A DNA stretch of 50,663 nucleotides from a virus. Taxonomy: Duplodnaviria > Caudoviricetes. The position numbers and the translations under genes were made by a program. Under the pieces are notes generated by a model. The model saw only the letters and a program-made list of their open reading frames with translations. It made no database searches and was not told the origin of the DNA. Where the stretch lies: positions 1-50,663 of IMG/VR virus record IMGVR_UViG_3300006169_000031; one strand, written 5' to 3'. Below are positions 2,022 through 49,596 of the stretch, piece by piece (the first letter of the stretch is position 1; each line of letters begins with the position of its first letter).

Positions 2022-2030
2022 GGAGCTGAC

Positions 2031-2540: not shown

Positions 2541-2542
2541 TC

Positions 2543-2794: not shown

Positions 2795-2807
2795 GGGGAT
2801 CACCACC

Positions 2808-3095
2808 ATGCCCAGCTCGCCCGGCTACCGTCGCGATTACAAGCAGGAGCGCAAGACCGCCATCCGCCGCGGGGAGACCCTCGGCTCCGACAGCGGCAAC
2901 GCGAAGCGCAAGCGCCTGCGGCGAGCGATGGAGAAGGAGGGCAGGGTCCACAAGGGCGACGGCAAGGACGTCGACCACAAGGTTGCGCTGTCGAAGGGCG
3001 GCGCGAACTCGACCAAGAACGCACGCGTGGTCTCGGCCAGCGACAACCGCAGCTTCCCCCGCACCAAGACCGGGGCGATGAAAAGGAACAAGTGA
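2808..3095 (+). CDS. HNH endonuclease-like protein
   Basis: DVDHKVALSKGG...N....SASDNRS HNH motif; GGGGG RBS-like run before ATG 2808. Confidence 0.85.
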   Translation: MPSSPGYRRDYKQERKTAIRRGETLGSDSGNAKRKRLRRAMEKEGRVHKGDGKDVDHKVALSKGGANSTKNARVVSASDNRSFPRTKTGAMKRNK

Positions 3096-3637
3096 TGGCC
3101 AAGCACGTGATGGCTGACCTCGAGACGCTCAGCACCGCCGACAACGCCCTTCTCCTCTCGATCGGCGGTGTGCTGTTCGACGGCGAGACGATCCTCGACA
3201 AGTTCCACGTCGGGATCGACCCGGTGGACGCCGAGCGTTACGGCCTCAAGGTCGACGCGGCGACCGCGTGGAATTATTGGGCTGACCCGAAGCGAGACGA
3301 GGCCCGCAAGCGCCTGTTCGAGCTGCCCAAGGTGGACCTGTTCGCCGCGCTCGACGGCTTCTCGATCTGGGTCAACGAGACGCCGGTCGACGAGCGCGGA
3401 TCGCTCTGGGGCAACGGTGCGACGTTCAACAATGTGCTGATCAAGAACGCCTTCGCCGCCGTCGGCCTGCCGAGCCCGTTCACCTACAAGCAGCAGGAGT
3501 GCTACCGCACACTCAAGAACCGCTGCCCGGAGATCGCCTACACCCAGATCGGCGTCGCGCACGACGCGCTCGACGACGCCGAGAGCCAAGCAGTCCACCT
3601 GCAGGCGATCTGCAAGCACCTCGGCATCACCCTCTGA
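3092..3637 (+). CDS. DEDDh 3'-5' exonuclease (phage RNase T-like family)
   Basis: DLETLST, LSIG, WGNGATF, HDALDDA motifs. Confidence 0.85.
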   Translation: MMAKHVMADLETLSTADNALLLSIGGVLFDGETILDKFHVGIDPVDAERYGLKVDAATAWNYWADPKRDEARKRLFELPKVDLFAALDGFSIWVNETPVDERGSLWGNGATFNNVLIKNAFAAVGLPSPFTYKQQECYRTLKNRCPEIAYTQIGVAHDALDDAESQAVHLQAICKHLGITL

Positions 3638-4317
3638 TGAAGCCCGCCGCATGGTCGCACTCGGCGCTCGACGCCTACGAGAACTGCCCCCGGCAGTATC
3701 ACGCGGTCAAGGTCGAGAAGCGCTTCCCCTTCGTCGACACCAAGGAGATCGCGTGGGGCCGTGAGGTCCACAAGCACTTCGAGGATTTCCTCGTCCACGG
3801 CACCCCGCTGCCGGCCGATCTCGCGATGCACCACGACTTCCTCGCCGGCTTCAAGGCCCAGCCAGGGGAGCTGGCCGGAGAGGAGCGGATCGCGCTCGAC
3901 ACCCAGATGCGGCGGTGCCAGTATTTCGACAAGCAGGTGCAGGTCTGGTATCGCGGTCAGGTGGACGCTCGGAAGCGGGACCGCGCCGCCGGCTACAGCC
4001 ATATCCTCGACCACAAGACCGGCAAGGTGAAGAACGACTACACGCAGCTCAAGGGCTTCGCGATGTGGGAGTTCCTGACCCAGCCGGACATCCACACCTG
4101 CAAGGTTGAGTTCTACTGGACCCAGATCAGGGGCACGAACGGCGAGACCTATCACCGCGAGCAGCTCCCCGAGATCATCCGGTTCTTCGCCGGCAAGCTG
4201 CACCGCTTCGCCGACGCCTACATCAACGATCACTGGCCGCCCAGGCAGTCGGGTCTCTGCAACGGCTGGTGCCCGGTCACCGACTGTGAGTTCTGGCGCC
4301 CCAAGAGGAAGCCCTGA
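3637..4317 (+). CDS. PD-(D/E)XK exonuclease, Cas4/RecB-like
   Basis: WSHSALDAYENCPRQY, G..VH, GQVD, DHKTGK, QL, C-terminal LCNGWCPVTDC; TGATG-coupled start. Confidence 0.88.
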   Translation: MKPAAWSHSALDAYENCPRQYHAVKVEKRFPFVDTKEIAWGREVHKHFEDFLVHGTPLPADLAMHHDFLAGFKAQPGELAGEERIALDTQMRRCQYFDKQVQVWYRGQVDARKRDRAAGYSHILDHKTGKVKNDYTQLKGFAMWEFLTQPDIHTCKVEFYWTQIRGTNGETYHREQLPEIIRFFAGKLHRFADAYINDHWPPRQSGLCNGWCPVTDCEFWRPKRKP

Positions 4318-4679
4318 TGGCCGAGATCGACTGGACGAAGCACAAGGTGTGGAGCGCCGAGATGATCGTCGCCGAGCGCGAGCGGCTCACCGAGCTGGAA
4401 TACGGGCGCTGGGGCCGCGCGATCGAGGTCGAGACCCACCGGCGCATCCGGCTCTGCGTCGCCACCTACGCCTACGAGATCGCCGACGATCCGATCTGGC
4501 CCGACAGCCAGTGGGATATGATCGCTCAGCAAATCAACCCGAAGCTCGGAACCTGTCATCCGATAGTCGACGAGTTCTTCGCAGCAGAATTCTCTCCGAT
4601 GACGGGCATGTGGATACACAATCACCCCGAACTCGAGGGAATAAAACGGCTCTACGAGAAGTATAGCCGCCGCAAATAG
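4317..4679 (+). CDS. Stand-alone NAD-dependent DNA ligase subdomain Ia-like protein
   Basis: YAYEIADDPIWPDSQWD resembles the LigA Ia motif YY..D.P...D..YD; no adenylation domain follows. Confidence 0.65.
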   Translation: MAEIDWTKHKVWSAEMIVAERERLTELEYGRWGRAIEVETHRRIRLCVATYAYEIADDPIWPDSQWDMIAQQINPKLGTCHPIVDEFFAAEFSPMTGMWIHNHPELEGIKRLYEKYSRRK

Positions 4680-4689
4680 AGGACCCACC

Positions 4690-4929
4690 ATGAAGATTAC
4701 GAAGCGAAGGACCGGATACACCATCCGCTGCAACCCCAGCGAGTTCGAGATGCTCGACAAGCTGCTGGGTGCCACGCCGCCGGACGCCGCCCGCCGGATG
4801 CTCAGCGGCAACGCGAAGAACGCCCACAGCCGCCGGCTGAAAAAGACCAACGGCGACCTGCTGGCGGTGGACAACGACATCAGCGACCGGCCGCTCGCCG
4901 GCAGCGCAGGACGTCTCAAAGCAGCCTGA
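4690..4929 (+). CDS. Hypothetical protein
   Basis: AGAGGA RBS before ATG; codon usage. Confidence 0.75.
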   Translation: MKITKRRTGYTIRCNPSEFEMLDKLLGATPPDAARRMLSGNAKNAHSRRLKKTNGDLLAVDNDISDRPLAGSAGRLKAA

Positions 4930-4946
4930 TCGAATACCAAAACGCA

Positions 4947-4969
4947 CCCGGCTCCCGCGTGGAGCCGGG
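4947..4969. terminator. GC-rich intergenic hairpin (terminator or processing site)
   Basis: CCCGGCTCC-cgcgt-GGAGCCGGG; no clear U tract on +. Confidence 0.4.
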
Positions 4970-4984
4970 GCTTCGGGGGTAACC

Positions 4985-5806
4985 ATGAAAGATACGCGCA
5001 GCCACATGCGGCTCGCCTCGAAGGCGGCCGGCGATGACATCACGTTCTCCCGCTACGTCCGCCTTGACGGCCATGGCACCCAGCACGGCAAGCAGCGCCA
5101 GATGCGCATCCCCGGGCTCGAGCTGCCGGCGATCCGCGAGGGGCGGTCGTTCTTCCAGAAAAGCGTCAGGTCACCTGACGACATGAAGCACCTGCTGGTC
5201 TCCGGCCACTCGAACATGAAGGTTGGCCGAGACTGCCGCATCGGCAAGCTCAAGGGCTACTGGATTTACACGCTGTCTCTCGAGGAGCGAAAGACGTGTC
5301 CGAGGAGCTGCCACCACTGGCAGACCTGCTACGGCAACGGCATGCCCTACGCGAAGCGGATCGACCACACCGCGCCGAGCTTCCTCCCGCGCCTCGAGGC
5401 GCAGATCGTCGCGCTGCTGAAGCAGGCCGCCAAGCGCCCGGGCTCGCCGGGGATCATCATCCGGCTGCACGCCCTGGGCGACTTCTACAGCCCTGCCTAC
5501 GTGGCCTTCTGGGACCGCATGCTGCGCGAGCACCCGAAGCTGGTCCTGTTCGGCTACACTGCGTGGCTGTCCGGCACCGCGATCGGCTGGGCGGTCAACG
5601 AGCTGATCAACGCATGGCCCGGCCGGGCGATGATCCGCTTCAGCGACGGCGGCTATGCGACGCGCTCTACTGTGCCGATCGTCGACGCAGCCGACTGCCC
5701 GCCGGGCGCGTTCGTGTGCCCCGAGCAGACCGGCAAGGTGGATGGCTGCGGGAAGTGCGGCATCTGCTGGTCGACCCTCAAGAACGTGGCGTTCATGGCC
5801 CACTGA
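4985..5806 (+). CDS. GP88-like Cys-rich protein (possible Fe-S/radical-SAM-related fold)
   Basis: TCPRSCHHWQTCY, IRLHALGDF, FGYT and C-terminal CPEQ...CGKCGICW are typical of phage GP88-family proteins. Confidence 0.7.
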   Translation: MKDTRSHMRLASKAAGDDITFSRYVRLDGHGTQHGKQRQMRIPGLELPAIREGRSFFQKSVRSPDDMKHLLVSGHSNMKVGRDCRIGKLKGYWIYTLSLEERKTCPRSCHHWQTCYGNGMPYAKRIDHTAPSFLPRLEAQIVALLKQAAKRPGSPGIIIRLHALGDFYSPAYVAFWDRMLREHPKLVLFGYTAWLSGTAIGWAVNELINAWPGRAMIRFSDGGYATRSTVPIVDAADCPPGAFVCPEQTGKVDGCGKCGICWSTLKNVAFMAH

Positions 5807-5807
5807 G

Positions 5808-6329
5808 ATGGAGCTGCGGCGGGGGCATAAGGGGCGGCTGATCAGGCCGGTGACGCCGGAGCTGGTGTCCTCGGCGCTCGAGCGGTTCCGGTCGTACTGC
5901 CGCTTCCAGCCGGAGACCGGCTGCGTGGTCTGGACAGGAGGTGTGCGGATGGGCCGAGGCCACCATGTGCCCTACGCAAACTTCTGGTTCAACGGGCTCA
6001 ACTGGCATGGCCACCGCTGGGCGGCGAAGTATATCCATGGCCAGGACATCGACGGCTTCCAGACGGACCACTGCTGCCCGCACATTCCAATCCCTAACAC
6101 GTTATGCGTTGAGCACGTCCAGTCGCTGACACCGCGGGAGAACCGCCTGCTGCAGCACGAGCGCCGGAAGAACTTCATCCACCTGCAGGTGGGCCTGATC
6201 CAGTATGAGGAGATGTATCAGCACCCGCCCGAACCGGCGCCGCTCGAGGCCGACGCCTTCCCATTCTTCACTCCGCCGAGCTGGCTCGGCATCCCCGAAA
6301 GGACCTACGATGGACATTGCCCCTTCTGA
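5808..6329 (+). CDS. HNH endonuclease (homing-endonuclease-like)
   Basis: GCVVWTG...HRWAAKY...TDHCC...CVEHVQSLTPREN. Confidence 0.85.
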   Translation: MELRRGHKGRLIRPVTPELVSSALERFRSYCRFQPETGCVVWTGGVRMGRGHHVPYANFWFNGLNWHGHRWAAKYIHGQDIDGFQTDHCCPHIPIPNTLCVEHVQSLTPRENRLLQHERRKNFIHLQVGLIQYEEMYQHPPEPAPLEADAFPFFTPPSWLGIPERTYDGHCPF

Positions 6330-6771
6330 GACCCCCAGCGTCACCATCCCGGCGAAGCTGCACCCTCCGATCAACGTCAGCCGCGTGGAGAACGAGAACG
6401 GCGTGAAGGCGCTGATCAAGGAGCTGTTCGACGCGCACGGCTGGTTCCACTTCGCACCCGGTGGCAACTCGTTCGGCCAGCAAGGGATCGGCGACCGGCT
6501 GGCTATCAAAAATGGTGTGTTTTTGAGCATCGAGGCCAAATTTGGATACAACAAGCCGAAGCCGCTGCAGAAGGGCTTCGCTGCCCAGATCATGGCGAAC
6601 GACGGCTTTGCTTTCTGTGTCAACGAGCGTAACATCGACCACCTCGCATGGTGGCTCGAGAGCTTCGAGATCGCAACGCAGTGCCAGCAGCGCGGCCAGG
6701 AAGTGCCCGCAGAGCACGGATCGCGGATGCTCAACGCCATCAGCGCGCTGACTGACCCGTTCGCGGAGTAA
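6310..6771 (+). CDS. VRR-NUC / Holliday-junction-resolvase-like nuclease
   Basis: ENGVK...GIGDRLAIKNGVFLSIEAK...KPKPLQ. Confidence 0.82.
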   Translation: MDIAPSETPSVTIPAKLHPPINVSRVENENGVKALIKELFDAHGWFHFAPGGNSFGQQGIGDRLAIKNGVFLSIEAKFGYNKPKPLQKGFAAQIMANDGFAFCVNERNIDHLAWWLESFEIATQCQQRGQEVPAEHGSRMLNAISALTDPFAE

Positions 6772-6773
6772 CG

Positions 6774-8351
6774 ATGCCCGACGTCCTCGTAGATGGCCGC
6801 ACCGAGAGCGTGGTGCTCCGGGCGGCCGACCCCTTCATGTTGCGCGACCTGCTGCCCCGCAGCAGGACGTTGCCGCACCCCGACTGGAACCTCGCGGTCC
6901 AGCATACGCTCGAGAGCACCAAGGTTCTTCGCAACCTCGGCTTCCGGGTGCCGGCGCCGATCCGCTTCCAATACGACTGGCCAGGGCGCTTCAGGCCGTT
7001 CGACCACCAGATCGAGATGGCCGAGTTCCTGACGATGCACCGGCGGTGCTTCAACCTGTCCGAGATGGGCACGATGAAGACCAACGGCTCGCTCTGGGCT
7101 GCGGACTGGCTGATGGCCACAGGCCGCGTGCGCAAGGCGCTGGTGATGTCGCCGCTGTCCACCCTCGAGAGCGTGTGGGCGAACGACATCTTCGACACCC
7201 TGCCGCACCGGACCTGCGCCGTGCTCCACGGCACGCAGGAGCGCCGGCTGAAATATCTCGGGATCGACGCCGACTTCTACATCCTCAACCATGACGGCAT
7301 CAAGATCGCCAAGCTGTTCGACGCGATCCTGAAGCGCCCGGACATCGACCTGCTGGTGGTCGACGAGGCCGGCATGTTCCGCAACCCGTCGAGCGGCAAA
7401 TACAAGGCGCTGGCGAAGCTGCTGAAGGCCCGCCCGGACCTGCGGCTATGGCTGATGACCGGCACGCCCTGCCCGAACGCGCCGACCGACGCGTGGTCGC
7501 TCGCGCGCCTCGTCGACCCGAGCCGGGTGCCGCAGTATGCCGGCGCGTTCAAGCGCGACACGATGATGCAGGTCTCGAGCTTCAAGTGGGTCCCGCGGAT
7601 CGACGCATTCGAGAAGGCCTATCAGGCGATGCAGCCAGCCATCCGCTTCAAGAAAAAGGACTGCATCGACCTGCCGCCGGTGACCACGCGCGATCTCGGC
7701 GCCGGGCTGACCAAGGCCCAGGCGGACGCGGTGAAGCAGCTCAAGGAGCACATGGTCACCAAGGCCGCGAACGGGGTCAAGGTGACCGCGGCGAACGCCG
7801 CCGACCAGATCAACAAGATCAGGCAGGTGCTGTGCGGCGCGCTGAAGGACCCGATGACTGGGGTCTACCACCCGCTGCCGCACCAGCCGCGCACGCAGGC
7901 GCTGATCGAGACGATCCAGCAGGCCTCGGCCAAGGTGCTGGTGGTCGTGCCGTTTAAGGGCATCATCCGGCTCCTCGAGCAGGAGCTGATCAAGCAGGGG
8001 ATCACCTGCGCGGTGGTCAACGGCGACGTGCCGATGGCCAAGCGCACCGAGATATTCAAGGCCTTCAAGACGCAGCCCGACCCTCACGTGCTGCTCTGCC
8101 ACCCGGCGGTGATGGCCCACGGTCTCAACCTGACCGAAGCTGACATGCTGATCTTCTACGCGCCGATCTACTCGAACGACGAGGTCGAGCAGGTCAACGA
8201 GCGCTTCAACCGCGCCGGCCAGACCCGCAAGATGACGATCGTGCGGATCGGCTGTCACCCGCTCGAGTGGGCGATCTACAAGCTGACGGACACGAGGAAA
8301 GAGGCCCAGAACTCGATCCTCGACCTCTACGACGAGGTCATGCACAGTTGA
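6774..8351 (+). CDS. SNF2-family (SF2) DNA helicase
   Basis: PFDHQ, EMGTMKT, VVDEA, MTGTP, HGLNLT, QVNERFNRAGQ. Confidence 0.93.
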   Translation: MPDVLVDGRTESVVLRAADPFMLRDLLPRSRTLPHPDWNLAVQHTLESTKVLRNLGFRVPAPIRFQYDWPGRFRPFDHQIEMAEFLTMHRRCFNLSEMGTMKTNGSLWAADWLMATGRVRKALVMSPLSTLESVWANDIFDTLPHRTCAVLHGTQERRLKYLGIDADFYILNHDGIKIAKLFDAILKRPDIDLLVVDEAGMFRNPSSGKYKALAKLLKARPDLRLWLMTGTPCPNAPTDAWSLARLVDPSRVPQYAGAFKRDTMMQVSSFKWVPRIDAFEKAYQAMQPAIRFKKKDCIDLPPVTTRDLGAGLTKAQADAVKQLKEHMVTKAANGVKVTAANAADQINKIRQVLCGALKDPMTGVYHPLPHQPRTQALIETIQQASAKVLVVVPFKGIIRLLEQELIKQGITCAVVNGDVPMAKRTEIFKAFKTQPDPHVLLCHPAVMAHGLNLTEADMLIFYAPIYSNDEVEQVNERFNRAGQTRKMTIVRIGCHPLEWAIYKLTDTRKEAQNSILDLYDEVMHS

Positions 8352-8375
8352 CTTAGCGAGTGGCAGATATACAAC
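8348..8375 (+). promoter_or_regulatory. Putative sigma70-type promoter
   Basis: TTGACT-N16-TACAAC; TTGACTTAG also found at 44377 and 47006. Confidence 0.6.
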
Positions 8376-8401
8376 ATAGACATCAATCAAAGGATAGCCT
8401 A

Positions 8402-8929
8402 ATGCAAGCCGCCATGCAGCGCCCCACCGACCCCTCCCACATCGCCTACGCCGGCACGGCGAACGAGATGTGGTGGAGCGGCGAGCAGCAGGAGTGGGTC
8501 GCCGCGCCGAAGACCGCGATGCCGGCGAACCTGAGCAAGATCGTCCAGGCCTACAGCGCGATCCGCGACGCGCGCACCGCCAAGCGCCATGCGTGGGAGG
8601 CCGAGGACCTCGCGCTCGAGGAGGACCAGCACAAGCTCAAGGTCATCATGCTGGACCTGCTCAACGCGACCGGAGCCAAGTCGATCAACACCGACTACGG
8701 CACCGTCTACCGCAGCGAGAAGATCAAGCCGAGCGCGGCCGACTGGACCGCGATCTACGGCTGGATCGCAGAAAATCCCGAGCGGTTCGAGCTGCTCGAG
8801 AAGCGTCTCAAGTCCACCTTCGTGAAGGAATTCATGGAGGAGAACGAGGGGGCAATCCCGCCGGGCGTCAACGTCCACCGGGAATTCGAGGTATCGGTGC
8901 GGCGTCCCAACGTCGCCTCCGAGAAATAA
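8402..8929 (+). CDS. Conserved phage hypothetical protein (coiled-coil, GTVY...DW...PPGV)
   Basis: AAGGA RBS before ATG 8402; motif pattern seen in proteins next to phage SSB genes. Confidence 0.75.
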   Translation: MQAAMQRPTDPSHIAYAGTANEMWWSGEQQEWVAAPKTAMPANLSKIVQAYSAIRDARTAKRHAWEAEDLALEEDQHKLKVIMLDLLNATGAKSINTDYGTVYRSEKIKPSAADWTAIYGWIAENPERFELLEKRLKSTFVKEFMEENEGAIPPGVNVHREFEVSVRRPNVASEK

Positions 8930-8956
8930 CCACCAACACCCTAGAGGGAGAAGTCC

Positions 8957-10453
8957 ATGACCGAGAACGCCATCGTCCAGTGGGACCCGAATTCGGGCGC
9001 CGCTCTCCCCGCCCACATCGCCGACGCGCTCGGTGGCATGGGCTCCAACATCCAAGACCGCATGACGGTCCCGTCGCTCTCCTACGAGGGCAAGACGTGG
9101 ACGATCGTCAAGGACGGCAACAAGACCAAGCTGCAGTCGGCCAACGCCGACGGCGACGTGGTGCCGATCCCGGTCATGCGGATGGTCATCCTCAACTACA
9201 ACCCCGACCGCGGCCGGGCCTACTACCCGGGCGTCTACAACCCGAGCCAGACCGCGCAGCCGGACTGCTGGTCGGCGAACGGCAAGGAGCCGGACCCCAG
9301 CTCGAAGAACCGCCAGAGCACCCAGTGCAACGGATGCCCGATGTCGGTGAAGGGCTCCAAGGTGCAGGACGGCAAGGAGATGGTCGCGTGCGGCTCCCAC
9401 CGCATGATCGCCATCGCGCCGGCCTTCGAGATCGCGGGTGATCCGCTGCGCCTGAAGATCGCCGTGACGTCCGACTACGACAAGGAAGTCGTCGAGCACG
9501 GCTGGTTCGCCTTCCGGCAATACACCGACTTCCTGAAGTCGCGCGGCATCAGCCACACCGCGCTCGTGGTGACCAAGGTCAAGTTCGACCCCAACACCGC
9601 GTTCCCGAAGCTGCTGTTCGCGCTCGAGCGGCTGCTCACCCCCGAGGAAGTCGCCCAGGTCAAGGTGGCGCTCGCCAACCCCAAGGTCGAGGAGCTGCTC
9701 GCCGAGAAGTGGTCGGCCGCCGGCACCAGCGGCACCGACACCGCCGACAAGGACATCCGTCCCCACGGTCTCGAGGGTGCCTACGCCGACGGCTGGACTG
9801 CGCACCCGGACGCCGCCGGCTTCTCCTACAAGGGGCAGGAAGTCGTCGCCAACGACGAGCTGGCCGCGCGCTATCCTGCGCCGGCTCCGGCCGCCACGCC
9901 GTCGGCACCTCCGCCGCCCGCCTCCCAGCAGATCGTCGACCAGACCCCGACGAACACCGTCATCGAGGACAAGCCGGTGCTGGGCGGTCTCTCCGCTGCC
10001 GTCGCGGACGGCTGGACGCCGCACCCTGAGGCGCCCGGCTACCACTACAAGGGGCAGGAAGTCGTTGCCGACGCGGACCTCGAGGCGCGCTACCCGTCCG
10101 CGCCTCCGGTCCAGCCGACGCCTCCGACGCCGCCTGCTCCTCCGCCGGTGGCCGCCCACGACCCGATCGCTGCGGCCGAGGCTGACGGCTGGGTCAAGCA
10201 CCCGGACGCCGAGGGCTACCACTACAAGGGGCAGGAGGTCGTGGCGACGGGTGATCTCGCCGCCAAGTACCCTCCTGCGAGCGGGGCCACTGGCGCCGCT
10301 GGGAGTGGCGCAGCAACATCTTCGCCGGGAGCGCCGGCTGGGGATGGGTCTGGCCAGACTGCGACGAGCGGTGCATCCCCTTCTAGCCCGGCCCCGAGCG
10401 GCTCGGCGGAAATCCCGGCCGATGTGCAGGACCTGCTGAACAAGTGGGGCTGA
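8957..10453 (+). CDS. SSB/annealing-like protein with Cys-rich core and three C-terminal 31-aa repeats
   Basis: PDCWS...C..CP...GS...C core; three ADGW..HP.A.G..YKGQEVVA repeats in Pro/Ala linkers; acidic-to-W C-terminus; lies between helicase and primase. Confidence 0.65.
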   Translation: MTENAIVQWDPNSGAALPAHIADALGGMGSNIQDRMTVPSLSYEGKTWTIVKDGNKTKLQSANADGDVVPIPVMRMVILNYNPDRGRAYYPGVYNPSQTAQPDCWSANGKEPDPSSKNRQSTQCNGCPMSVKGSKVQDGKEMVACGSHRMIAIAPAFEIAGDPLRLKIAVTSDYDKEVVEHGWFAFRQYTDFLKSRGISHTALVVTKVKFDPNTAFPKLLFALERLLTPEEVAQVKVALANPKVEELLAEKWSAAGTSGTDTADKDIRPHGLEGAYADGWTAHPDAAGFSYKGQEVVANDELAARYPAPAPAATPSAPPPPASQQIVDQTPTNTVIEDKPVLGGLSAAVADGWTPHPEAPGYHYKGQEVVADADLEARYPSAPPVQPTPPTPPAPPPVAAHDPIAAAEADGWVKHPDAEGYHYKGQEVVATGDLAAKYPPASGATGAAGSGAATSSPGAPAGDGSGQTATSGASPSSPAPSGSAEIPADVQDLLNKWG

Positions 10454-10468
10454 TCTAGCGTCTCGGTC

Positions 10469-10551
10469 CCCGCCCGGCACACCACATCTCGTGGCTTGCC
10501 GGGCGGGTCTGATTTACGCATATTCGTGACCCCTCCCCGCGAGAGGAGGGG
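10469..10551 (+). other. Two intergenic stem-loops upstream of the primase gene
   Basis: CCCGCCCGGCA(10469-10479)/TGCCGGGCGGG(10497-10507) and CCCCTCC(10530-10536)/GGAGGGG(10545-10551). Confidence 0.55.
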
Positions 10552-10598
10552 CAGGCGGGGGTCCCCATGAAACCAGCATTTTCGGCCGAGGCGTCTGC

Positions 10599-13500
10599 AT
10601 GACGCCCGGCAAATTCCTCCGACTTCTGTGGCCCGAGCAGGGACCCTACTGCATCGCGCACCCGTTCAAGCCGGCCGGATCACCCACCACCGTCTACGCG
10701 CACAAGGTCTTCGCGACGATCTCCGAGGCGGTGACCCACGTCCACGAGCAGGCCAACCTGCAGGACGTCTATTTCGCGGTGCTCTCGCTCGAGCAGGACC
10801 GGGTGTGGGACCCGGAGAAGACCGACTACAAGACCGGCCAGAAAGGCGCGTGGGCCGTCCGCCTGCAGTCGAACATGGCCAAGTCCAAGGCGCTGTTCTT
10901 CGACCTCGACGTGGGTAAGGAGCCCACCAAGTTCGACACCCAGCAGGACGCCTTGCGCGCGCTCGCCGACTTCCTCGTGAAGACCAAGCTGCCGGTTCCG
11001 ACCTTGGTCTCGTCCGGCGGCGGCGTCCACGTCTACTGGCACATCTCCGAGGCGATCGAGCGCGAGGAGTGCCGCCAGATGCAGTGGCACATGCGCCAGC
11101 TCGCCGAGGGCCTCGGGCTCAAGGTGGACCCGCAGCGCACGACCGATATGTCCTCGGTGCTGCGCGTGCCCGACACCTTCAACTGGAAGGACCGCAACAA
11201 CCCGCGTCCGGTCACGGTGCTCGGCGGCACCCAGGGTGCGGTCACGCCGCACGCGACGTTGAAGCAGCTCATCTCGGATGCGATGATCGCCCACAGCATC
11301 GTCGCCACCGACGCGCCGATCACCCGCGCCGCGGTGCCGCACGTGCCCAACCCGCTGGGCGAGCAGGCCGCGTTCAATGACTTCGGCCCGCCGCCGACGC
11401 TGGGCGAGCTGGGCGACGCGTGCGCGCAGGTCCGGGAGATCGTCCGCAGCCAGACCGACCGTAACCATCCGCACTACGGGCCGCTCGACAACACCGCGTG
11501 GTATCGCGGCATGCTGGCGACCCTGAAGCACGTCGAGGACGGCGACAACCTGTGCCGGAAGCTGACCGCGATCCACCCGCGCTCGGTCGCCGACATCGAA
11601 GCCAAGCTCCTGCAGCTCGAGCGGTTCGCCCCGGCGAAGTGCGAGACCCTGCAGCAGTTCATGCCGTGGAAGGACAGCCCATGCCAAGGATGCCCGCACC
11701 GGGGCCGGGTGCCCAACCCGTTCGTCGCGGCCCGCAAGACTACGCCGGCACCACCCCCGATGGCTGGCGGACCTGCATCGGAGACGTCATCTGCTCCGCC
11801 ACCGCCGCCTGCGTCTTCTGCGGGCGCGACGCCGATGCAGCTCATGGCGCCGAACGCGATCCTCGCCCAGGCGGCGATCCCTAACCCCCCGAAGCCCTAC
11901 GAGCGGCTGAAGGCGGGCGGGATCAGCGTGACCCGCACCGACAAGGACGGCAACCAGACCGTGACCGTGATCTTCCCCCACGACCTCTATCCGCTCAAGC
12001 GGCTGGTCAACGAGGGTGAGCAGCGCGAACAACAGGTCTGGCGGGTCACCCTGCCGCGCTCGGGCGCTCGGGACTTCACCATCGACGCCGACGTGCTGTA
12101 TGATGGCCGGAAGTTCGCCAGCGCCCTCGCCCACAACGGGGTTTACCCCAACAAAGCCGATCTCCCGGCACTGCAGGACTACATGGTCGCCTACATCTCC
12201 CAGCTTCAGAAGACGCTCGATGCCGACGCCCAGGCGAACCACCTCGGGTGGGCTCGCGAATACCAGCAGTTCGTGCTGCCGGACAAGACGCTCCTCGCCG
12301 ACGGCTCGGTCAAATCCTCGACCCTGTCGATCGCCGCCGAGCGCGCGGCGCAGCACATCAAAAAGACCGGCGACGCCAACATCCAGCGTGGTCTCCTGAG
12401 CTTCTACGACCGGCCGGAATACATCGCCAACCAGTTCGTGATCCTCTCGAGCCTCGCGTCGATCATCTTCGACATGACCGGCCACCACGGCATCGTGGTC
12501 AACTGCTCGGGCGATGCTGGCGCGTCAAAGTCTACGACGCTATACGTTGCCGCCGGGCTCTGGGGCGATCCGGTGCTCTGGCCGATCAACGGCACCAACC
12601 GCGGCGCGACGGCCAACGCGCGCATGCAGCGCATCGTCACCAACGCCAACCTGCCGACCTGCGTCGACGAAATCACGCACATGCCGGCGCGTGAGGCGAT
12701 CGACCTCGTGATGGGCATCACCCAGCCTGGGCACCGCCTGCGGCTCACGACCGAGGGCGTCGAGCGCAAGGTCGAGGACGGCTACAAGTCGGCGATCATG
12801 ATCGCCACCGCGAACAGCTCGCTGCACTCGCTGATCAGCCAGGACAGCGCCGCCGGCACCGCCGGCTCGATGCGCGTGTTCGAGATCAAGTTCCCGATCC
12901 CGCACGTCCACACCAAGGCCGAGGCGGACGACTTCCTGCGCCAGATCAAGGCCCACTACGGGCACATCGGCGAGCTGTTCGCCCACTTCGTGATCCGCAA
13001 CCGCGACGCCGTCGCCAAGCGCGTCCACGCGGTCATGGCGGAGATCGACAACGAGGCCTCGATCCGCAGCTCCGAGCGCTTCTGGTCGGCCGTGATCGCG
13101 GTCGTGGTGGTCACCGCGGAAATCTGCGAGGCGCTGAAGCTGCTGCCCTACTCGGCCGAGGCGATCCGCAAGTGGGCAGTCGAGGAGCAGGTCCCCTACA
13201 TGCGTGGGATCGTGAAGGAGGAATACCGCGATCCGCTGGCGGTCCTGACCGACTACATCGCCGAGAAGCACGGCAACATCGTGGTGATCGACAAGGCCAC
13301 CTCGATCGGCGCCAACACCGCCGGGCAGGCTGTCGCGGGAGAGACCGCCTTCGCGGTCAGGGAGCCGCACGGCGCGTTGCTCGGCCACTACGACCTCAAG
13401 GCCGGCACGCTCCTCCTTATGCACAACGCGTTCAAGGAGCACTGCTCGCGGATCGGCGCCAGCACGTCGAAAATCCTCGAGGAGCTGAGCACCGACAAGG

Positions 13501-13676
13501 ACCCGGTCGTGCTCAAGCGGCAGGTCCGCCGCACGCTGGGCGCCGGCACCAACCTCGCCAAAGGGCAGGTCTGGTGCATCCTCGTCAACATGAACCACCC
13601 CGAGGTCGCTGGCGTGAAGCCGACGCTCGCGGTGTCCAACCCCACCCCGGCCAACGATGTCGCGGTGGCAAGCTAG
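10599..13676 (+). CDS. Primase-helicase fusion (RepB/AEP-type primase, PriCT-like/Zn region, DUF927-like P-loop domain)
   Basis: FFDLDVG, SSGGGVHVYW, VLRVP, C..CP, Walker A-like GDAGASKST, Walker B CVDEIT. Confidence 0.88.
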   Translation: MTPGKFLRLLWPEQGPYCIAHPFKPAGSPTTVYAHKVFATISEAVTHVHEQANLQDVYFAVLSLEQDRVWDPEKTDYKTGQKGAWAVRLQSNMAKSKALFFDLDVGKEPTKFDTQQDALRALADFLVKTKLPVPTLVSSGGGVHVYWHISEAIEREECRQMQWHMRQLAEGLGLKVDPQRTTDMSSVLRVPDTFNWKDRNNPRPVTVLGGTQGAVTPHATLKQLISDAMIAHSIVATDAPITRAAVPHVPNPLGEQAAFNDFGPPPTLGELGDACAQVREIVRSQTDRNHPHYGPLDNTAWYRGMLATLKHVEDGDNLCRKLTAIHPRSVADIEAKLLQLERFAPAKCETLQQFMPWKDSPCQGCPHRGRVPNPFVAARKTTPAPPPMAGGPASETSSAPPPPPASSAGATPMQLMAPNAILAQAAIPNPPKPYERLKAGGISVTRTDKDGNQTVTVIFPHDLYPLKRLVNEGEQREQQVWRVTLPRSGARDFTIDADVLYDGRKFASALAHNGVYPNKADLPALQDYMVAYISQLQKTLDADAQANHLGWAREYQQFVLPDKTLLADGSVKSSTLSIAAERAAQHIKKTGDANIQRGLLSFYDRPEYIANQFVILSSLASIIFDMTGHHGIVVNCSGDAGASKSTTLYVAAGLWGDPVLWPINGTNRGATANARMQRIVTNANLPTCVDEITHMPAREAIDLVMGITQPGHRLRLTTEGVERKVEDGYKSAIMIATANSSLHSLISQDSAAGTAGSMRVFEIKFPIPHVHTKAEADDFLRQIKAHYGHIGELFAHFVIRNRDAVAKRVHAVMAEIDNEASIRSSERFWSAVIAVVVVTAEICEALKLLPYSAEAIRKWAVEEQVPYMRGIVKEEYRDPLAVLTDYIAEKHGNIVVIDKATSIGANTAGQAVAGETAFAVREPHGALLGHYDLKAGTLLLMHNAFKEHCSRIGASTSKILEELSTDKDPVVLKRQVRRTLGAGTNLAKGQVWCILVNMNHPEVAGVKPTLAVSNPTPANDVAVAS

Positions 13677-13685
13677 GAGAAGGCC

Positions 13686-14042
13686 ATGGAGTTCAAGTCG
13701 TTCTCGGACGTCAACCGGGACCGCTGCGTCGCCAAGGACGGCTTCGACCACCCGCTCGAGCTGTGGAGCCTGTCCGACTGGATGGTGGCTGCGACGGGCG
13801 AGCTGGGCGAAGCAGCGAACATCCTGAAGAAAATGAACCGGGTGCGGGACAACATCGACGCGCCCAACGACCCGGAGCTGGTCCTGCTCAAGGAGATGTT
13901 CGCCAAGGAGCTGGCCGACACCTACTGCTACCTCGATCTACTCGCCCAGGCGGCCGGTATCGACCTCGAGCAGGCGGTGATCGCCAAGTTCGACGAGGTC
14001 TCGGAGCGTATCGGCTATCCGCTGCGCCTGCGCGGCCTGTGA
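13686..14042 (+). CDS. MazG-like nucleotide pyrophosphohydrolase
   Basis: GELGEAANILKK...KELADTYCYL...KF; AGGAG RBS. Confidence 0.85.
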   Translation: MEFKSFSDVNRDRCVAKDGFDHPLELWSLSDWMVAATGELGEAANILKKMNRVRDNIDAPNDPELVLLKEMFAKELADTYCYLDLLAQAAGIDLEQAVIAKFDEVSERIGYPLRLRGL

Positions 14043-14323
14043 GCCATCCCTGCGCCATCCCGGGCTGCACGCGCCCGGCGAAGGACCACCAGCTCATGTG
14101 CTGGCCGCACTGGTGCCGGGTGCCCAAGGTCCTCAACCGGGCGATCTTCGCCACCGTCCACGATCGGCCGCGCACCGAGTATCGCAAGCACGTCGCCGAC
14201 GCCATCGCCGCGGTCGTGGCCAAGGAGGAAGCCGGAGGGCCGACACCGACAGCGACCTGCATCATCCCCAACTGCCGGAAGCGCGCGCCCGCTGCCGAGC
14301 CCTTCTGCACGGAGCACCGATAA
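14039..14323 (+). CDS. Hypothetical protein with two C-x4-C-x10-C-x2-H Zn-finger-like motifs
   Basis: GTGA-coupled start; CAIPGC...MCWPH and CIIPNC...FCTEH. Confidence 0.7.
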   Translation: MSHPCAIPGCTRPAKDHQLMCWPHWCRVPKVLNRAIFATVHDRPRTEYRKHVADAIAAVVAKEEAGGPTPTATCIIPNCRKRAPAAEPFCTEHR

Positions 14324-14544
14324 TGACCAACCAGCAACGCGTTGAGGCGTGGCATCAGGAATGGCTCGAGAGCAATGAGCCGCACTGGGGTGATCGGATC
14401 AACTGGACCACGGCCGACGACATCGCCCGGCGTCTGGACGAGGCCGGCGCCACCAAGGCCGAGAGCTGCGACGTCCCGCCGGAGGGTTGGTATTGCACGC
14501 GTCCGAAGGGGCACGACGGCCCCTGCGCGGCGCATCCGGCTTAG
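14323..14544 (+). CDS. Hypothetical protein with C-terminal Cys/His motif
   Basis: TAATG-coupled start; CDVPPEGWYCTRPKGHDGPC. Confidence 0.65.
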   Translation: MTNQQRVEAWHQEWLESNEPHWGDRINWTTADDIARRLDEAGATKAESCDVPPEGWYCTRPKGHDGPCAAHPA

Positions 14545-15053
14545 AAGCCGTTAATCCGATCGAGGTATGCGGCGTAGCTTTCACCGGGCCGCCGCGGCGT
14601 CTCCGCCGGCAGGCGCGTGAAGCTCGAGCTGGACGGGACGATGTCGCCCAGCGTGAACGGCTGGGAAGCCCGCTGCAGCCGCACCGCGTCGCGCACCGGC
14701 GGCGCCAGGGCACTCTCGTCGCCGAGGCCGGTGTAGCGCAGCACCCCGTTCTGGGTCGTGGTGTAGGCCGTCTGGGCGTCCGCCGCGCGGATGCGTGCTT
14801 GGCTCTCCGGGACCACGATCGAGGCCTGCTGGCCGGTGAGGTTCGCCTGGGCGTTGGTCAGCCCGATGTTCGCCGCACTCTCCGCCGGCAGCAGCCGGGT
14901 CCGCACGCGGTCGAGCGCAGCAGCCGCTTCGCCGGTGAGCGCCGCCGTGGCCGCGTTCCGGGTCGTGGCCGCCGCATTGACATCGGCAGTATTGGCCTGC
15001 TGCTGCAGGATGTCATACTTCCGGTTGAGGAAGTAGTTGAAGTCCACCGCCAT
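14541..15053 (-). CDS. Putative virion protein (last gene of the late operon)
   Basis: Ala/Gln/Thr-rich; operon position. Confidence 0.65.
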   Translation of the reverse strand: MAVDFNYFLNRKYDILQQQANTADVNAAATTRNAATAALTGEAAAALDRVRTRLLPAESAANIGLTNAQANLTGQQASIVVPESQARIRAADAQTAYTTTQNGVLRYTGLGDESALAPPVRDAVRLQRASQPFTLGDIVPSSSSFTRLPAETPRRPGESYAAYLDRINGF

Positions 15054-37832: not shown

Positions 37833-39326
37833 CTAGCGGAAGTGGTAGTTGCCGCCGAACGTCTTGGGCGGCGTGAAGGCCGGAGCCCCGCCAGGACCGT
37901 ATGAGGCATTTCGCTCGGCTTGTCGATGGAAGTAGCGCGCGAGGTAGCCGAAGCCGTCACCCGGATGGCTGTAGGCGTTCTTCTCCGGCTGCGCATTGCC
38001 ACCGCCCCTGATCTGCTCTTTGCTGTCCAGCGCATAGCGCCAGCCGCCCTTCAGGGCGCGCACGAGGATCGGGCAGTGGCGCTCGTCGATCAGGAGCCCG
38101 GGCAGGCCGAACGGTGAGTGGGTGCAGAAGTGGTCGATCGCGTCGAGCCGCAGCGGGAGCCGGTTGTTGCTCTCGATCGACACCGGGAAGTAGCGCTTCA
38201 GCGTCGAGACGATGGTGTTCTCGTCGTTGGCGTTGCGGTTGTTCGCCGCGGGGTCTGGCGCGATGGTGAAGCCGCCCTGCGGCATGTCGGGGAACCGCGA
38301 GGACAGGTAGGGCCGCAGCCGCTCGTTGACGAACCGCGAGGCGCCGACGCCGGACGTGATGATCTCCCCGAGCACGTAGAGCCGGCCCTCGAGGTCCTGC
38401 TGGCCGAAGATCATCGCCGCGCCGCCGAGACCGGGGTCGAAGCCACCCACGAGGTGCAGGTTGGGATCGTAGCGCAGCGGCGTCTTGGAGACGTGGACCT
38501 TGGGGTTAAAGGCTTGCACGACCGGCTTGCCGGACACGCTGAAGCCCCACTCCGCCTCGATGAACTGCTTGATCCAGGCCTCGCTCTTGTTCTTCGCCGC
38601 GGACACGTAATAGTCCTTGCCGCCGGGCAGGTTGTCGACGTTCTCGGCGAAGGGCGAGAAGCCGCTCGGCTGCAGGAAATAGCGGGTGTTGCGCGTATCG
38701 CCCTCGCCGGCCTTGTAGAGCGCGACCCCCTCGCCGGGCTGGATCACGCCGCCTGCGTTGTGCAGGTAGTCGAACCACCAGTTGTCCTCGGTCGACGGGT
38801 TGCTCGAGCCCCACATGCCCCAGTTCGTCGCACCGCCCATCACGGACGACGGGTAGCGCCCGCAGCGGGCGGCCAGGGCGTCGATGATCGCCTGCGGGAT
38901 TTCCACGAACTCGTCGACGATCGCGAAGGTGACCTCGAGCGAGAGCACGCGGCTGATGTCCTGCGGGGTGTCGAGCGGGCGGAACAGGACCTCGCACTCG
39001 ACGTCGGCGAAGCGCAGGGTGAAGCGCTTGTTGGTGATCTCCCAGGTGCCTGCCTGACCCGGCTTGAACCACGTGAACCACGAATTCAGCGTCGTATCCT
39101 GAAGCTGCTGGCTGGTGTTGCGCACGATCACGGCGCGGGACCGACGGATGCCGTCGGGTCCCTTCGCCTGCATCTGCGCCATCACGATCAGCTTCATGAA
39201 GATGCCGGTGGTCTTGCCCGAGCCGACCGGGCCGACGATCCAGTCGTAGAACAGCTCATGCGGCCGGTAGTCCTTGATGAACCGGCTGATCGTGTCGGGC
39301 GGGGTGTAGTTGATCGACGCGGCCAT
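37833..39326 (-). CDS. terL: Terminase large subunit
   Basis: Walker A GPVGSGKT, Walker B FAIVDE, SNP, nuclease GFDPG and HPGDGFGY; likely start ATG 39326. Confidence 0.93.
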   Translation of the reverse strand: MAASINYTPPDTISRFIKDYRPHELFYDWIVGPVGSGKTTGIFMKLIVMAQMQAKGPDGIRRSRAVIVRNTSQQLQDTTLNSWFTWFKPGQAGTWEITNKRFTLRFADVECEVLFRPLDTPQDISRVLSLEVTFAIVDEFVEIPQAIIDALAARCGRYPSSVMGGATNWGMWGSSNPSTEDNWWFDYLHNAGGVIQPGEGVALYKAGEGDTRNTRYFLQPSGFSPFAENVDNLPGGKDYYVSAAKNKSEAWIKQFIEAEWGFSVSGKPVVQAFNPKVHVSKTPLRYDPNLHLVGGFDPGLGGAAMIFGQQDLEGRLYVLGEIITSGVGASRFVNERLRPYLSSRFPDMPQGGFTIAPDPAANNRNANDENTIVSTLKRYFPVSIESNNRLPLRLDAIDHFCTHSPFGLPGLLIDERHCPILVRALKGGWRYALDSKEQIRGGGNAQPEKNAYSHPGDGFGYLARYFHRQAERNASYGPGGAPAFTPPKTFGGNYHFR

Positions 39327-39333
39327 TAACGTC

Positions 39334-39573
39334 TCAGTGCCTGAAGTGGATGAACTCGCGTCCATCCCACGAGTTGTGCGCCCAGTTGTCCGGCGCCTGC
39401 ATGTCCTCGACCGGGTGGCAGGCACACGTTTCCGCTGCCTGATGTGGCCGTAAGTCATTGGTCGGCAGCAGGTGGCGCTGGTGGTGTCCCTGCGGGGTCA
39501 CGACGTCGAACGCGCGCCAGCCGAAGAACGTCGCCGTCGCTACACGCGGCATCGGTACGATCGGCTCTCTCAC
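39334..39573 (-). CDS. Hypothetical His/Cys-rich protein
   Basis: GTGA-coupled start; HLLP.NDLRPH...CACHP...HNSWDGRE. Confidence 0.65.
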   Translation of the reverse strand: MREPIVPMPRVATATFFGWRAFDVVTPQGHHQRHLLPTNDLRPHQAAETCACHPVEDMQAPDNWAHNSWDGREFIHFRH

Positions 39574-43561: not shown

Positions 43562-44380
43562 ATGACCATCCTCGCCCTTCACTCCCTCTCCGCGATCCGG
43601 GCCAAGTCCGGCCTGACCAAGCGCAACATCGCCGACCTGACCGCCGCGGCGAACCGCAAGCACGGCCCCATCACCATCGACCGCCTGCGCGAGCTTGAGA
43701 ACGGCCCGATCCGCGCAGAACCTTGGCTCGATGAGGCAACCGACCTTGCCCGCATCCTCCTCCTCCCGGGCGTCGTCTCGATGATGTGGGATGAGAAGGC
43801 CGGCGTCGACGCCCAAGCTCAGATAACGTCAGGTGACCTGACACGCTTCGATCTCGGCCACGAGATGCCTGACGAGGTGGACATGCTGCTGCGCGGTGTG
43901 CGCCTGCCCCTGAGCATGGCTTGCCGGTTGGCTGTCCGCTTCGGCCTCACCGATCCGACGCAGCTCGAGCAGCTCCCGATCCACCAGCAGATATGGGCCA
44001 CGCTCGAGGCCAACGAGCGCGGAGCCGCCCCGGGCGAATGTCCGTGGTGTCGTGCGCCGGGCGGCCAGCACCTGCCCACCTGCCTGCCGGCGAACATCTG
44101 GTCGACCCGATCGACGGCGCCTTACGCTACGACCACCGCGCCTCAACCGGCCAAGCCGGGCGGGCGAGGGCTGGCACGCATGGCCAAGGGCCTGAAGGCT
44201 GCGCGCAAGGCGACCCAGCTCACCCAGGCACAGGTTGCCAGCAGCATCGGGATGCACCCGAACTATCTCGCGCGGATCGAGCAGCTCAAGCACCCGCTGT
44301 CCGACGCGCACGCGATCAACATCGCGCGCATCCTCGGCTGCACTGTCGAGGACCTGTTCGGCGCCAGCAGCGAGGATTGA
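43562..44380 (+). CDS. Multi-HTH transcriptional regulator (C-terminal XRE HTH, N-terminal HTH-like region, central CxxC...H...C)
   Basis: LKAARKATQLTQAQVASSIGMHPNYLARIEQ...IARILGCTVEDLF; LSAIRAKSGLTKRNIA...RLRELENG; GGAG RBS. Confidence 0.85.
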   Translation: MTILALHSLSAIRAKSGLTKRNIADLTAAANRKHGPITIDRLRELENGPIRAEPWLDEATDLARILLLPGVVSMMWDEKAGVDAQAQITSGDLTRFDLGHEMPDEVDMLLRGVRLPLSMACRLAVRFGLTDPTQLEQLPIHQQIWATLEANERGAAPGECPWCRAPGGQHLPTCLPANIWSTRSTAPYATTTAPQPAKPGGRGLARMAKGLKAARKATQLTQAQVASSIGMHPNYLARIEQLKHPLSDAHAINIARILGCTVEDLFGASSED

Positions 44381-44404
44381 CTTAGGGTCTGGCTGGTCCA
44401 GACT
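44377..44404 (+). promoter_or_regulatory. Putative promoter
   Basis: TTGACT-N16-CAGACT (TTGACTTAG family). Confidence 0.55.
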
Positions 44405-44409
44405 AGAGG

Positions 44410-44513
44410 CTCAATGTTCGTGGTTCCTTCGGGTCGCACCGAAGGGGGTGGGGCTGGCGCGGTGCCCTTCCAGACCGTTGCCGCGTCGGTCCCACCCATC
44501 CACGAGCATCGAG
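44410..44513 (+). ncRNA. Candidate structured RNA / 5' leader (three-way junction)
   Basis: P1 44410-44423/44500-44513, P2 44426-44432/44439-44445, P3 44446-44464/44479-44497 with several G-U pairs. Confidence 0.6.
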
Positions 44514-44519
44514 AAAAGC

Positions 44520-44534
44520 GTCAGGTAACCTGAC
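44520..44534. repeat. 15-bp palindrome (leader cassette copy)
   Basis: GTCAGGTAACCTGAC, 23 nt before ATG 44558. Confidence 0.95.
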
Positions 44535-44557
44535 AGCATCTACCAAAGGAAACGGCC

Positions 44558-44854
44558 ATGTCGAAGTTCTTCATGCCCATCGAGCTGCACGATCCCAAGC
44601 TGCCAGTCGCGCAGCGCTGGTTCTTCCTCGAGATCGAGGCGGTCGACGAGTACAACGCGTTGCTCAAGGGCAACCGTATCGCCCCGAAGATGATCTCCCG
44701 CGGCGTCAACTACTCACGGTGGGCGTGCCACCGTGAGATGCCGAGCAACGAGTACATGCAGGCCCTGTCCGACGGCATGCGCAAGAGCCGCGGCAAGTCG
44801 CCCAGGGTGCGCAACGCCATGATCGACGCCGAGCTGGCGCGGGTGGCCGCGTGA
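44558..44854 (+). CDS. Hypothetical early protein
   Basis: AAAGGA RBS in the cassette. Confidence 0.8.
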   Translation: MSKFFMPIELHDPKLPVAQRWFFLEIEAVDEYNALLKGNRIAPKMISRGVNYSRWACHREMPSNEYMQALSDGMRKSRGKSPRVRNAMIDAELARVAA

Positions 44855-47009: not shown

Positions 47010-47047
47010 CTTAGCAGCAGGGTCAAATAAACTCTAACGTGTTAGAG
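47006..47047 (+). promoter_or_regulatory. Putative promoter with overlapping palindromic operator
   Basis: TTGACT-N16-TAAACT followed by CTCTAAC-GT-GTTAGAG. Confidence 0.65.
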
Positions 47048-48923: not shown

Positions 48924-49290
48924 GAGAGCCTTCACCTACGATCACGTCGATGCCGCCATGTGCATCTGGGAGGAGATGACCAATCCCAAGCTCAAGGAGG
49001 CCGATCAGCCGTGGACGGCGCACCGAGAGAAGTGGGGCGCCGCCGGCCTGCGCGACGTCGTGATCACCAAGCTGGCATGGCCTTGCCACGAGGCATGGGA
49101 GCGGGCGATGGCGCGCTACGAGGGCAACGACGACCCGAACGACACCGATCCCGGCAGCTTCGATTGGGAGTTCGTACCCCTGTGGATCAGGCAGTGCGTC
49201 GACTGGTCCGGCGAGCATCCCCGGGTGCGCGGAGGCGTTGGCGTCAACGAGCACACGCTCGCCCATTTCCGGGAGGGACTACCGGCATGA
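48916..49290 (+). CDS. Hypothetical protein
   Basis: AAGGAG RBS; Trp-rich. Confidence 0.75.
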   Translation: MAERAFTYDHVDAAMCIWEEMTNPKLKEADQPWTAHREKWGAAGLRDVVITKLAWPCHEAWERAMARYEGNDDPNDTDPGSFDWEFVPLWIRQCVDWSGEHPRVRGGVGVNEHTLAHFREGLPA

Positions 49291-49586
49291 TCGAAACTAC
49301 TGTGTCGAGGCAGGTGCTCGAGCAGGTCGCCGACGGCTTTCACTAGCTCATCGCGCTCAAGGCGGAGCAGCAGGCCACCCAGGCGGAGATGATCCGCGGT
49401 TGTGTCGCCGCGATCCGGCGCGAACCGCGCGGTCATTTCGACTGGCAGAAGGCCCGGGACGAGCGGAAGCAGATCGAGCACGAGCGCGCGCTGGCGCTGC
49501 TTCACCGCGAATGGCTGGCGACCAGCTTGGAGCGCGACGCCGGGATTGACATAGCCCCGGCACCCGTCATCATCAGCACTCCCTAA
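49287..49586 (+). pseudogene. Hypothetical gene interrupted by in-frame TAG (49344-49346)
   Basis: GGAGG RBS and ATGA coupling; MIETTVSRQVLEQVADGFH*LIALKAEQQATQAEMIRG... continues in frame. Confidence 0.65.
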
Positions 49587-49596
49587 CACGTTAGGG
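49546..49596 (+). promoter_or_regulatory. Putative promoter followed by palindromic operator
   Basis: TTGACA-N16-CATCAT then CCCTAAC-AC-GTTAGGG. Confidence 0.55.

Follow-up and report, generated by a model that had tools for sequence, protein, structure and literature searches.

The early messages of the phage described here and of its relatives begin, in nearly all of the cassette leaders that were found, with a stem predicted to close at or next to the first nucleotide, and the modelled folds indicate that it is the paired 5′ end that is conserved, neither its shape nor its sequence. The largest of these leaders, which is predicted to fold into a 104-nt three-way junction at positions 44410–44513, is most likely the enlargement, in one lineage, of a common cassette design, and not a conserved RNA family. 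Its outer helix may guard the early mRNA against 5′-end-dependent decay, a reading drawn from predicted structures to which we would give about an even chance. This is the simplest reading of the locus, i.e., a 5′-terminal stem that nearly all cassettes have in common by position, not by sequence, and it was missed by the earlier note on this DNA.

The window, that is, the whole stretch of DNA that was analysed, is the record IMGVR_UViG_3300006169_000031, with 50,663 bases and a completeness of ~80%, ~20% of the genome being absent. The terminase (37833–39458) and the capsid head genes lie on the − strand and the replication genes on the + strand, and the site of the junction RNA is in the + strand early region, with an HTH gene (43562–44380) upstream and an orphan gene for 98 aa (from 44558) downstream. 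The closest named terminases are those of Pseudomonas phage Rollin (44%) and of Rhizobium phages (35%), together with Burkholderia phages, and the phage that carries the junction is podovirus-like and non-T4. A tyrosine integrase was found neither in the window nor in any of five relatives.

The predicted fold and its promoter

The three-way junction is returned by RNAfold as the minimum-free-energy and the centroid structure alike (−66.8 kcal/mol, z −7.45), and all of the pairings in P1, P2, and P3 that the earlier note had read from the letters were recovered at their coordinates. The 5′ strand of P1 (44410–44423, + strand; pair probabilities 0.96–1.0), which holds the nucleotides with which the transcript is predicted to begin, pairs with the 3′ strand (44500–44513, + strand) over 14 positions, among them an A·C mismatch and a single U·G pair. 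Enclosed by P1 on the same strand are the P2 hairpin (44426–44445), with 7 bp (44426–44432/44439–44445) and a 6-nt loop, and the P3 hairpin (44446–44497), with 18–19 bp (44446–44464/44479–44497), 4–5 G·U pairs, no mismatches, and a loop of 14–16 nt; by sequence, P3 has 19 unbroken pairs with five G·U, and RNAfold opens the last, loop-closing G·U to leave 18 bp. Given that P2 abuts P3 with no linker at all, the two helices are predicted to stack coaxially in a T shape, and the two 2-nt junction strands could provide P1 with an extra U·U and U-A.

None of 200 dinucleotide shuffles was as stable as the junction, whose pair probabilities range from 0.92 to 1.0. The − strand reaches only −52.9 kcal/mol, ~14 kcal/mol weaker than the + strand, in line with G·U pairs being usable on one strand only, and this difference upholds the claim that the structure exists at the level of the RNA. 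When the junction is set beside 5,056 grid windows from the same record, its GC-corrected z is −5.2 and that of the best grid window −3.7, although the boundaries of the grid windows were not optimised. The raw energy is not unique, as a coding window at 44825 (76% GC) reaches −67.0 kcal/mol. When both strands of the record were searched for uninterrupted stems, with G·U permitted and loops of ≤30 nt, P3 was the longest, at 19 bp, followed by a runner-up of 14 bp. The presence in P3 of five G·U pairs and no mismatches suggests selection for an RNA duplex, and across P1 and P3 the ratio of 6 G·U to 1 A·C gives p ~0.06, by an estimate of our own that assumes both transitions to be equally likely. 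The fold persists at 70 °C in silico, and a cotranscriptional folding series ends in the three-way junction, with the ribosome site free of any competing trap and with P1 closing only at nt 103.

The junction begins where transcription is expected to begin. A −35 box TTGACT (44377–44382, + strand), which overlaps the stop codon of the HTH gene and has a TTGACA or TTGACT counterpart, at the orthologous position, in the relatives L066, L073/L083, L074, and L126, is separated by a 16-nt spacer from a −10 box CAGACT (44399–44404, + strand), which would put the +1 near 44411, and the start of the junction thus coincides with the predicted start of this sigma70-type promoter, as had been claimed. 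The spacer is likewise of 16 nt in L066, and the arrangement of the hexamer, 6 nt, and TCA was found again in L066, L073, and L126. A stricter consensus scan did not list the 44377 promoter. Starts anywhere from 44408 to 44416 would leave the 5′ end paired, with 0–2 free nt in the in silico folds. Within the spacer, and overlapping the −10 box, lies an inverted repeat with 6-bp arms and a 5-nt gap (44387–44403), which occurs once in the window. Its 3′ arm, CCAGAC, reappears in the P3 loop (44470–44475), a recurrence that may be due to chance; the hexamer occurs 16 times on the + strand.

On these models, the predicted fold is genuine and uncatalogued. The novelty that the earlier note had proposed with respect to Rfam stood, as no family of Rfam 15 matched the window at the gathering thresholds, and the sub-threshold matches were five miRNA hairpins only, at 15–20 bits against cut-offs of 45–78. 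A tRNA or tRNA mimic was rejected, given that ARAGORN found no tRNA genes and that the T-loop motif is absent. A BLASTN search of named phages and plasmids yielded chance-level matches only, and five short sequence strings were found in no paper of the literature searched. Strings from the window had no match in the searched part of the PMC10690425 supplement, so the element may be listed as a candidate viral RNA in another part of it. The P1/P2 pattern was found at at least 119 viral loci (57/64 parts) and at least 120 genome loci (31/64 parts), and none of the top-scoring among these 239 matches resembles P3 or the P1 3′ strand. A covariance model made from the one sequence had the element itself as its sole match in 859 kb; with the filters off, the best score in 97 kb was 24.6 bits, and none of 23 whole records held a match.

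Early cassettes and orthologous leaders

A terminase scan gave 91 loci, 80 of which were retained, and five of these (L066, L073, L083, L074, and L126) hold the HTH gene with a gap downstream; L073 and L083 are near-identical, which leaves four distinct lineages, with HTH proteins 32–35% identical to that of the window. Among the whole records searched, the HTH gene is present in 6 of 36. The nearest HTH relatives (86%, 64%, 63%, and 60% identical) are known as proteins only. Scans based on the HTH found nothing in viral contigs and one metagenome contig, which ends within the gene, degenerate codon patterns added no new leaders, and a terminase scan of cellular genomes found none. A look through listed sequencing runs brought up no RNA run, and two DNA runs contain pieces of relatives, none of which spans 44254–44559.

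The TTGAC(A/T) promoter, the leader, the palindrome that follows it, and an AAGGA ribosome site are all kept in the four related lineages (4/4), and the three-way junction of the window is absent from all four of the orthologous leaders. These leaders have 77, 56, 77, and 41 nt, against 109 in the window, and fold as two adjacent hairpins in L073 and L126, as a loose enclosed structure in L066, and as one weak hairpin in L074, with stems at +1 of ≤11 bp. Two of the four were weak at the first boundaries (z −1.9 and −1.4) and have z of −2.8 and −1.7 at those of the cassette call. A conserved family of three-way junctions, which the earlier note had entertained, finds no support in these folds or in the searches above, which turned up no copy of the element.

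The hairpins of L073 and L126 indicate how the junction may have arisen. Their 5′ hairpins (11 bp) align in register with the P1 5′ strand, sharing TCAA and GTGGTT, and P1, read from the outside in, matches these stems with two pairs more, enclosing 76 nt, against 7 and 5. Given this alignment, P2 and P3 look inserted in the loop of such a hairpin, and the likely history is that an ancestral 5′ hairpin received them there as a lineage-specific addition. The TCA is also found at the +1 of one stemless promoter, and may thus be a feature of the promoter. Between L073 and L126, all of the nine alignable pairs are preserved (9/9), with one two-sided and three one-sided changes, and the hairpin of the first promoter of the window has one two-sided change with respect to the L057 hairpin, although these two-sequence pair counts are no better than those of column shuffles (251/500 and 232/500). 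A weak look-alike of P3 lies at 7787–7862 of L425 (record G034), in a leader at 7752 behind a non-orthologous promoter, with similar arms and an exact 10-nt tail like that of the P3/P1 junction. Its pattern, which was made after the look-alike had been seen, turns up at three separate places across 1.19 Mb (uncorrected p 0.004). The look-alike is left unranked by the covariance model, and to enclose it in an outer stem would cost 7 kcal/mol. This case is a lead only, hinting at leader modules that move between promoters.

The paired 5′ end extends well beyond these orthologs. A rule-based search found 17 promoter-leader-palindrome cassettes in 7 related records; the promoter pattern, written after inspecting these sequences, had 41 matches, from which 24 were excluded as free of a palindrome within 140 nt. 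No more than 3 nt are unpaired at the start of the leader in 16 of the 17 cassettes, a condition also seen in 25–83% of the shuffles, and 15 of the 17 leaders beat their shuffles at p ≤ 0.05. The pairing of nt 1–8 is above that of the shuffles in every cassette (17/17), with a mean of 0.80 against 0.40. Given that the cassettes fall in few orthologous groups and that the rule is post hoc, the combined p of 3e-14 is overstated. The + strand folds better in only 10 of the 17 leaders. The hairpins of the cassettes are unrelated in sequence and in size, even within a single phage, the junction of the window being the largest of the 17 leaders, and they stand 1–17 nt (median 9) from the palindrome. 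An 18th cassette, at 2164 in G034, which falls outside the strict palindrome rule, also has a stem at its start (z −4.15), and the stem is absent from four promoters that have the ribosome site directly after the +1. At palindromes in general, the mean z of the leader fold is −1.9 where there is a promoter (12 sites), against −0.7 (26 sites) and −0.5 (22 sites) where there is none.

Palindromes and neighbouring genes

The gap of 6 nt between the end of P1 and the palindrome at 44520 had been counted correctly in the earlier note. This perfect 15-bp palindrome (7-1-7, 44520–44534) is one of nine exact copies in the window (5165, 41967, 42871, 43828, 44520, 46656, 47216, 47823, and 49606), which lie in the early/replication region, and it is likely the operator for a phage dimer. 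The family to which it belongs, GTC-xyz-TNA-z′y′x′-GAC, has 7–14 copies in the early and replication region of each phage and none in the late region examined, and its inner triplet is phage-specific (AGG, ACG, AGA, and GGA, across the window and L083/L423, L421/L422, L424, L425, L057, and L063), which looks like diverging operator specificity. A second palindrome, CTAAC-N2-GTTAG, stands at the +1 region of two other early promoters (47034–47045 and 49583–49594), with half sites at 41893 and 42935. L077, L098, and L103, whose terminases are 57–61% identical, have repeated 15-bp palindromes of their own, with another sequence and 3–5 copies in the stretches covered. Chi-like octamers had no telling enrichment.

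The candidate binder of the palindrome is the protein of the upstream HTH gene (43562–44380, + strand), which has 272 aa and a C-terminal Cro/C1-type HTH (Pfam HTH_3, E 4e-11; repressors in PHROGs), and belongs to a family of ~100 clusters in which a C-x2-C...H-x3-C motif, likely a zinc site, is invariant. One palindrome copy (43828–43842) lies inside this gene, where it encodes S-G-D-L-T, and many of 106 homologs have S-G-[DN]-L-T or S-D-H-L-T, S-D-N-L-T, and S-C-D-L-T at that place; the palindrome of each phage may be readable from its HTH protein.

On the downstream side, a Shine-Dalgarno-like AAAGGA (44545–44550, + strand), part of the repeated cassette (repeat family D6), precedes the first gene of the operon (44558–44854, + strand), a family-less orphan of 98 aa with no matches in either Pfam or PHROGs. 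Its protein has one 83% homolog (JGI contig) and a 32% homolog at the equivalent place in L126, and its Atlas matches are all under 0.9. Two other stretches of the window are worth recording. The segment 42790–43560 has a lower GC, few genes, short repeats, and a 30-bp inverted repeat (43239–43268/43400–43429), the matching region of record G001 (L063 8133–8249) has a long near-perfect inverted repeat, and the segment is possibly a replication origin or a genome-end signal. At 49238–49549, a probable gene (start near 49288) is seemingly broken by an in-frame TAG at ~49345, beyond which the frame is open; the TAG may be a sequencing error or the mark of a broken gene.

Readings of the 5′ stem

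The best explanation of the junction is that of a protective 5′ stem, for which the 5′-terminal stabilising stem-loop of E. coli ompA is a familiar example. RppH and RNase E require single-stranded 5′ ends, which is the basis of stabilisation by 5′ structure (PMC3997798), and, given that the paired 5′ end is conserved, P1 is read as a stem of this type. The host RNA polymerase would start near 44411, and, as synthesis proceeds, P2 would close first, P3 second, and P1 last; once closed, P1 would keep the 5′ triphosphate out of reach of RppH as well as of RNase E or J, and the message would run on through the palindrome and reach its ribosome site at 44545. As in other stems of the ompA/papA type, the stem stands 0–3 nt from the predicted start, leaves the ribosome site free, and is unconstrained in sequence, whereas the leader of the window differs in being a 104-nt three-way junction of a repeated early-cassette design, in which stabilisation is predicted. 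PMC3997798 also reports that the loss of RppH affects only ~10% of the mRNAs of E. coli. Protection requires P1 alone, and it leaves the perfect pairing of P3 unexplained; P3 may have a job of its own, e.g., as an RNase III site or as a released small RNA.

The closest parallel in layout is found in the PeSL cassettes of T4-type phages (Arbiol et al. 2010, PMC2839356), which also repeat a sigma70 promoter, a stem-loop, and a Shine-Dalgarno before small orphan early genes, and in which the first gene past an orthologous promoter likewise varies among relatives. However, the PeSL stems lie mostly between the −35 and −10 boxes or over the −10 and terminate upstream transcription, whereas the stem here is past the +1, even though a small inverted repeat does overlap the −10 box, and an operator-like palindrome comes next, in a non-T4 phage. 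Membership of the PeSL class was rejected on the position of the junction downstream of the +1 and on its non-T4 terminase relatives.

Some of the alternatives give a role to the enlarged part of the junction. The early leaders of T7 and lambda are precedents for processing by RNase III, and P3, or P2 stacked on P3 (~25 bp), could be a site at which this enzyme shortens the leader and governs how stable the early message is or how well it is translated, which we consider unlikely. The stem of 18–19 bp, the longest uninterrupted one in the record, is above the 34-nt minimal E. coli substrate (PMC1540722), and its G·U pairs without mismatches would suit a selected RNA duplex, but the same paper names G-C pairs as antideterminants in the proximal box and UA/UG as the best distal box, which suggests that the very G-C rich P3 carries antideterminants, and the orthologous leaders have +1 stems of only ≤11 bp. 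The junction might also be released as a ~105–110-nt RNA, through stalling at a palindrome-bound protein or through processing, to serve as a trans-acting decoy for an RNA-binding or defence protein of the host. This is a distinctly improbable reading: a U-tract is absent after P1, the hairpin-palindrome gap (1–17 nt, median 9) is under the roughly 20 nt that a hairpin terminator would need at a roadblock, the phage targets of the P3 loop are no better than those of shuffled loops (−24.2 against −23.3 to −27.1), and the junction is not conserved. Nevertheless, it has its own promoter, ends sealed by P1, high stability, and the largest leader among the 17 cassettes, and the palindromes fall between and inside early genes, like mycobacteriophage stoperators (PMC9934374). 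A further proposal, that the T-shaped junction is a lineage-specific ~105-nt early sRNA, or an RNA held by the polymerase, that decoys RNase III or a dsRNA-sensing defence protein and is gated by a protein on the palindrome 6 nt downstream, is also unlikely.

Other alternatives would have the leader bind a protein or change its fold. The HTH domains of Aca1 and Aca2 recognise hairpins in the 5′ UTR as well as an inverted repeat in the DNA, which represses translation, and the Aca1 RNA motif lies directly after the transcript start and ends ~20 nt before the start codon (PMC13551039). A protein-binding leader of this type, made of the 5′ stem and the palindrome, would fit the HTH gene immediately upstream and the presence of +1 stems ahead of palindromes but not at promoters with short leaders, but it is very improbable, as the Aca RNA motifs keep conserved base pairs, the 5′ stems here have no shared sequence within one phage, and the palindrome is a better candidate site than the junction. 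The stoperators (PMC9934374) and the Aca leaders (PMC13551039) resemble the palindromes in their many early-region copies near gene starts and in the nearby HTH gene, although stoperators keep one orientation to transcription, the sites here are perfectly palindromic and differ from phage to phage in the inner triplet, and an acr gene, as in the Aca systems, was not found. Even less probable is a cis antiterminator that binds the host RNA polymerase, like put of HK022, which suppresses pausing and termination via the beta′ zinc domain (PMC9378689). The junction does follow an early promoter directly, at the head of a long operon, as put does, and the two adjacent hairpins of L073 and L126 loosely resemble its V-shaped, two-stem form; on the other hand, put is sequence-specific and has ~73 nt, with specific nucleotides and a two-stem shape that are both required, and neither is conserved around the enclosed 104-nt junction, in which P1 closes at nt 103, too late for an early fold. 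The earlier note had raised this antitermination, for which the analysis offers no positive evidence: terminator-like sites are at chance (7 against 5.1 and 8 against 9.1), and downstream on the + strand of the ~80% complete record there is one weak 5-bp intragenic site and no strong terminator, with 0/8 sites on + in 1–15000. The least probable, and hardly to be credited, is a conformational switch or attenuator, perhaps driven by a 39-codon ORF (44414–44533) that spans the fold from an ATG ~3 nt past the predicted start. The complementarities that it would use are present (CCCTTC/GAAGGG, TTCCTT/ribosome site, and GTGGTT/start-codon region), as the earlier note had seen for the first of them, but forcing that one weakens the fold, from −83.8 to −56.6 kcal/mol, which makes it unusable, and the loop/GAAGGG, anti-Shine-Dalgarno, and start-codon pairings cost 27, 19, and 15 kcal/mol, respectively. 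The ribosome site has the same accessibility, 0.56, whether the junction is present or absent; the junction holds even at 70 °C in silico, and the ATG at 44414 is missing from the four orthologous leaders; the switch is thus not borne out, and membership of the riboswitch or attenuator class was rejected on the cost of the competing folds (15–27 kcal/mol) and the unaltered accessibility.

If the reading of a protective 5′ stem is true, this group of phages would seal nearly every long early leader at its 5′ end while leaving the sequence of the stem free, and a stem of this type would be able to grow into a branched RNA of 104 nt, a plausible route by which simple protective hairpins may give rise to new structured RNAs. 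The case also advises caution, in that a striking fold seen in one genome does not by itself make a conserved RNA family. The palindrome family, with its changing inner triplet, may prove to be the more tractable finding, and, if P3 does have a job of its own, the junction would be an undescribed early RNA of phages.
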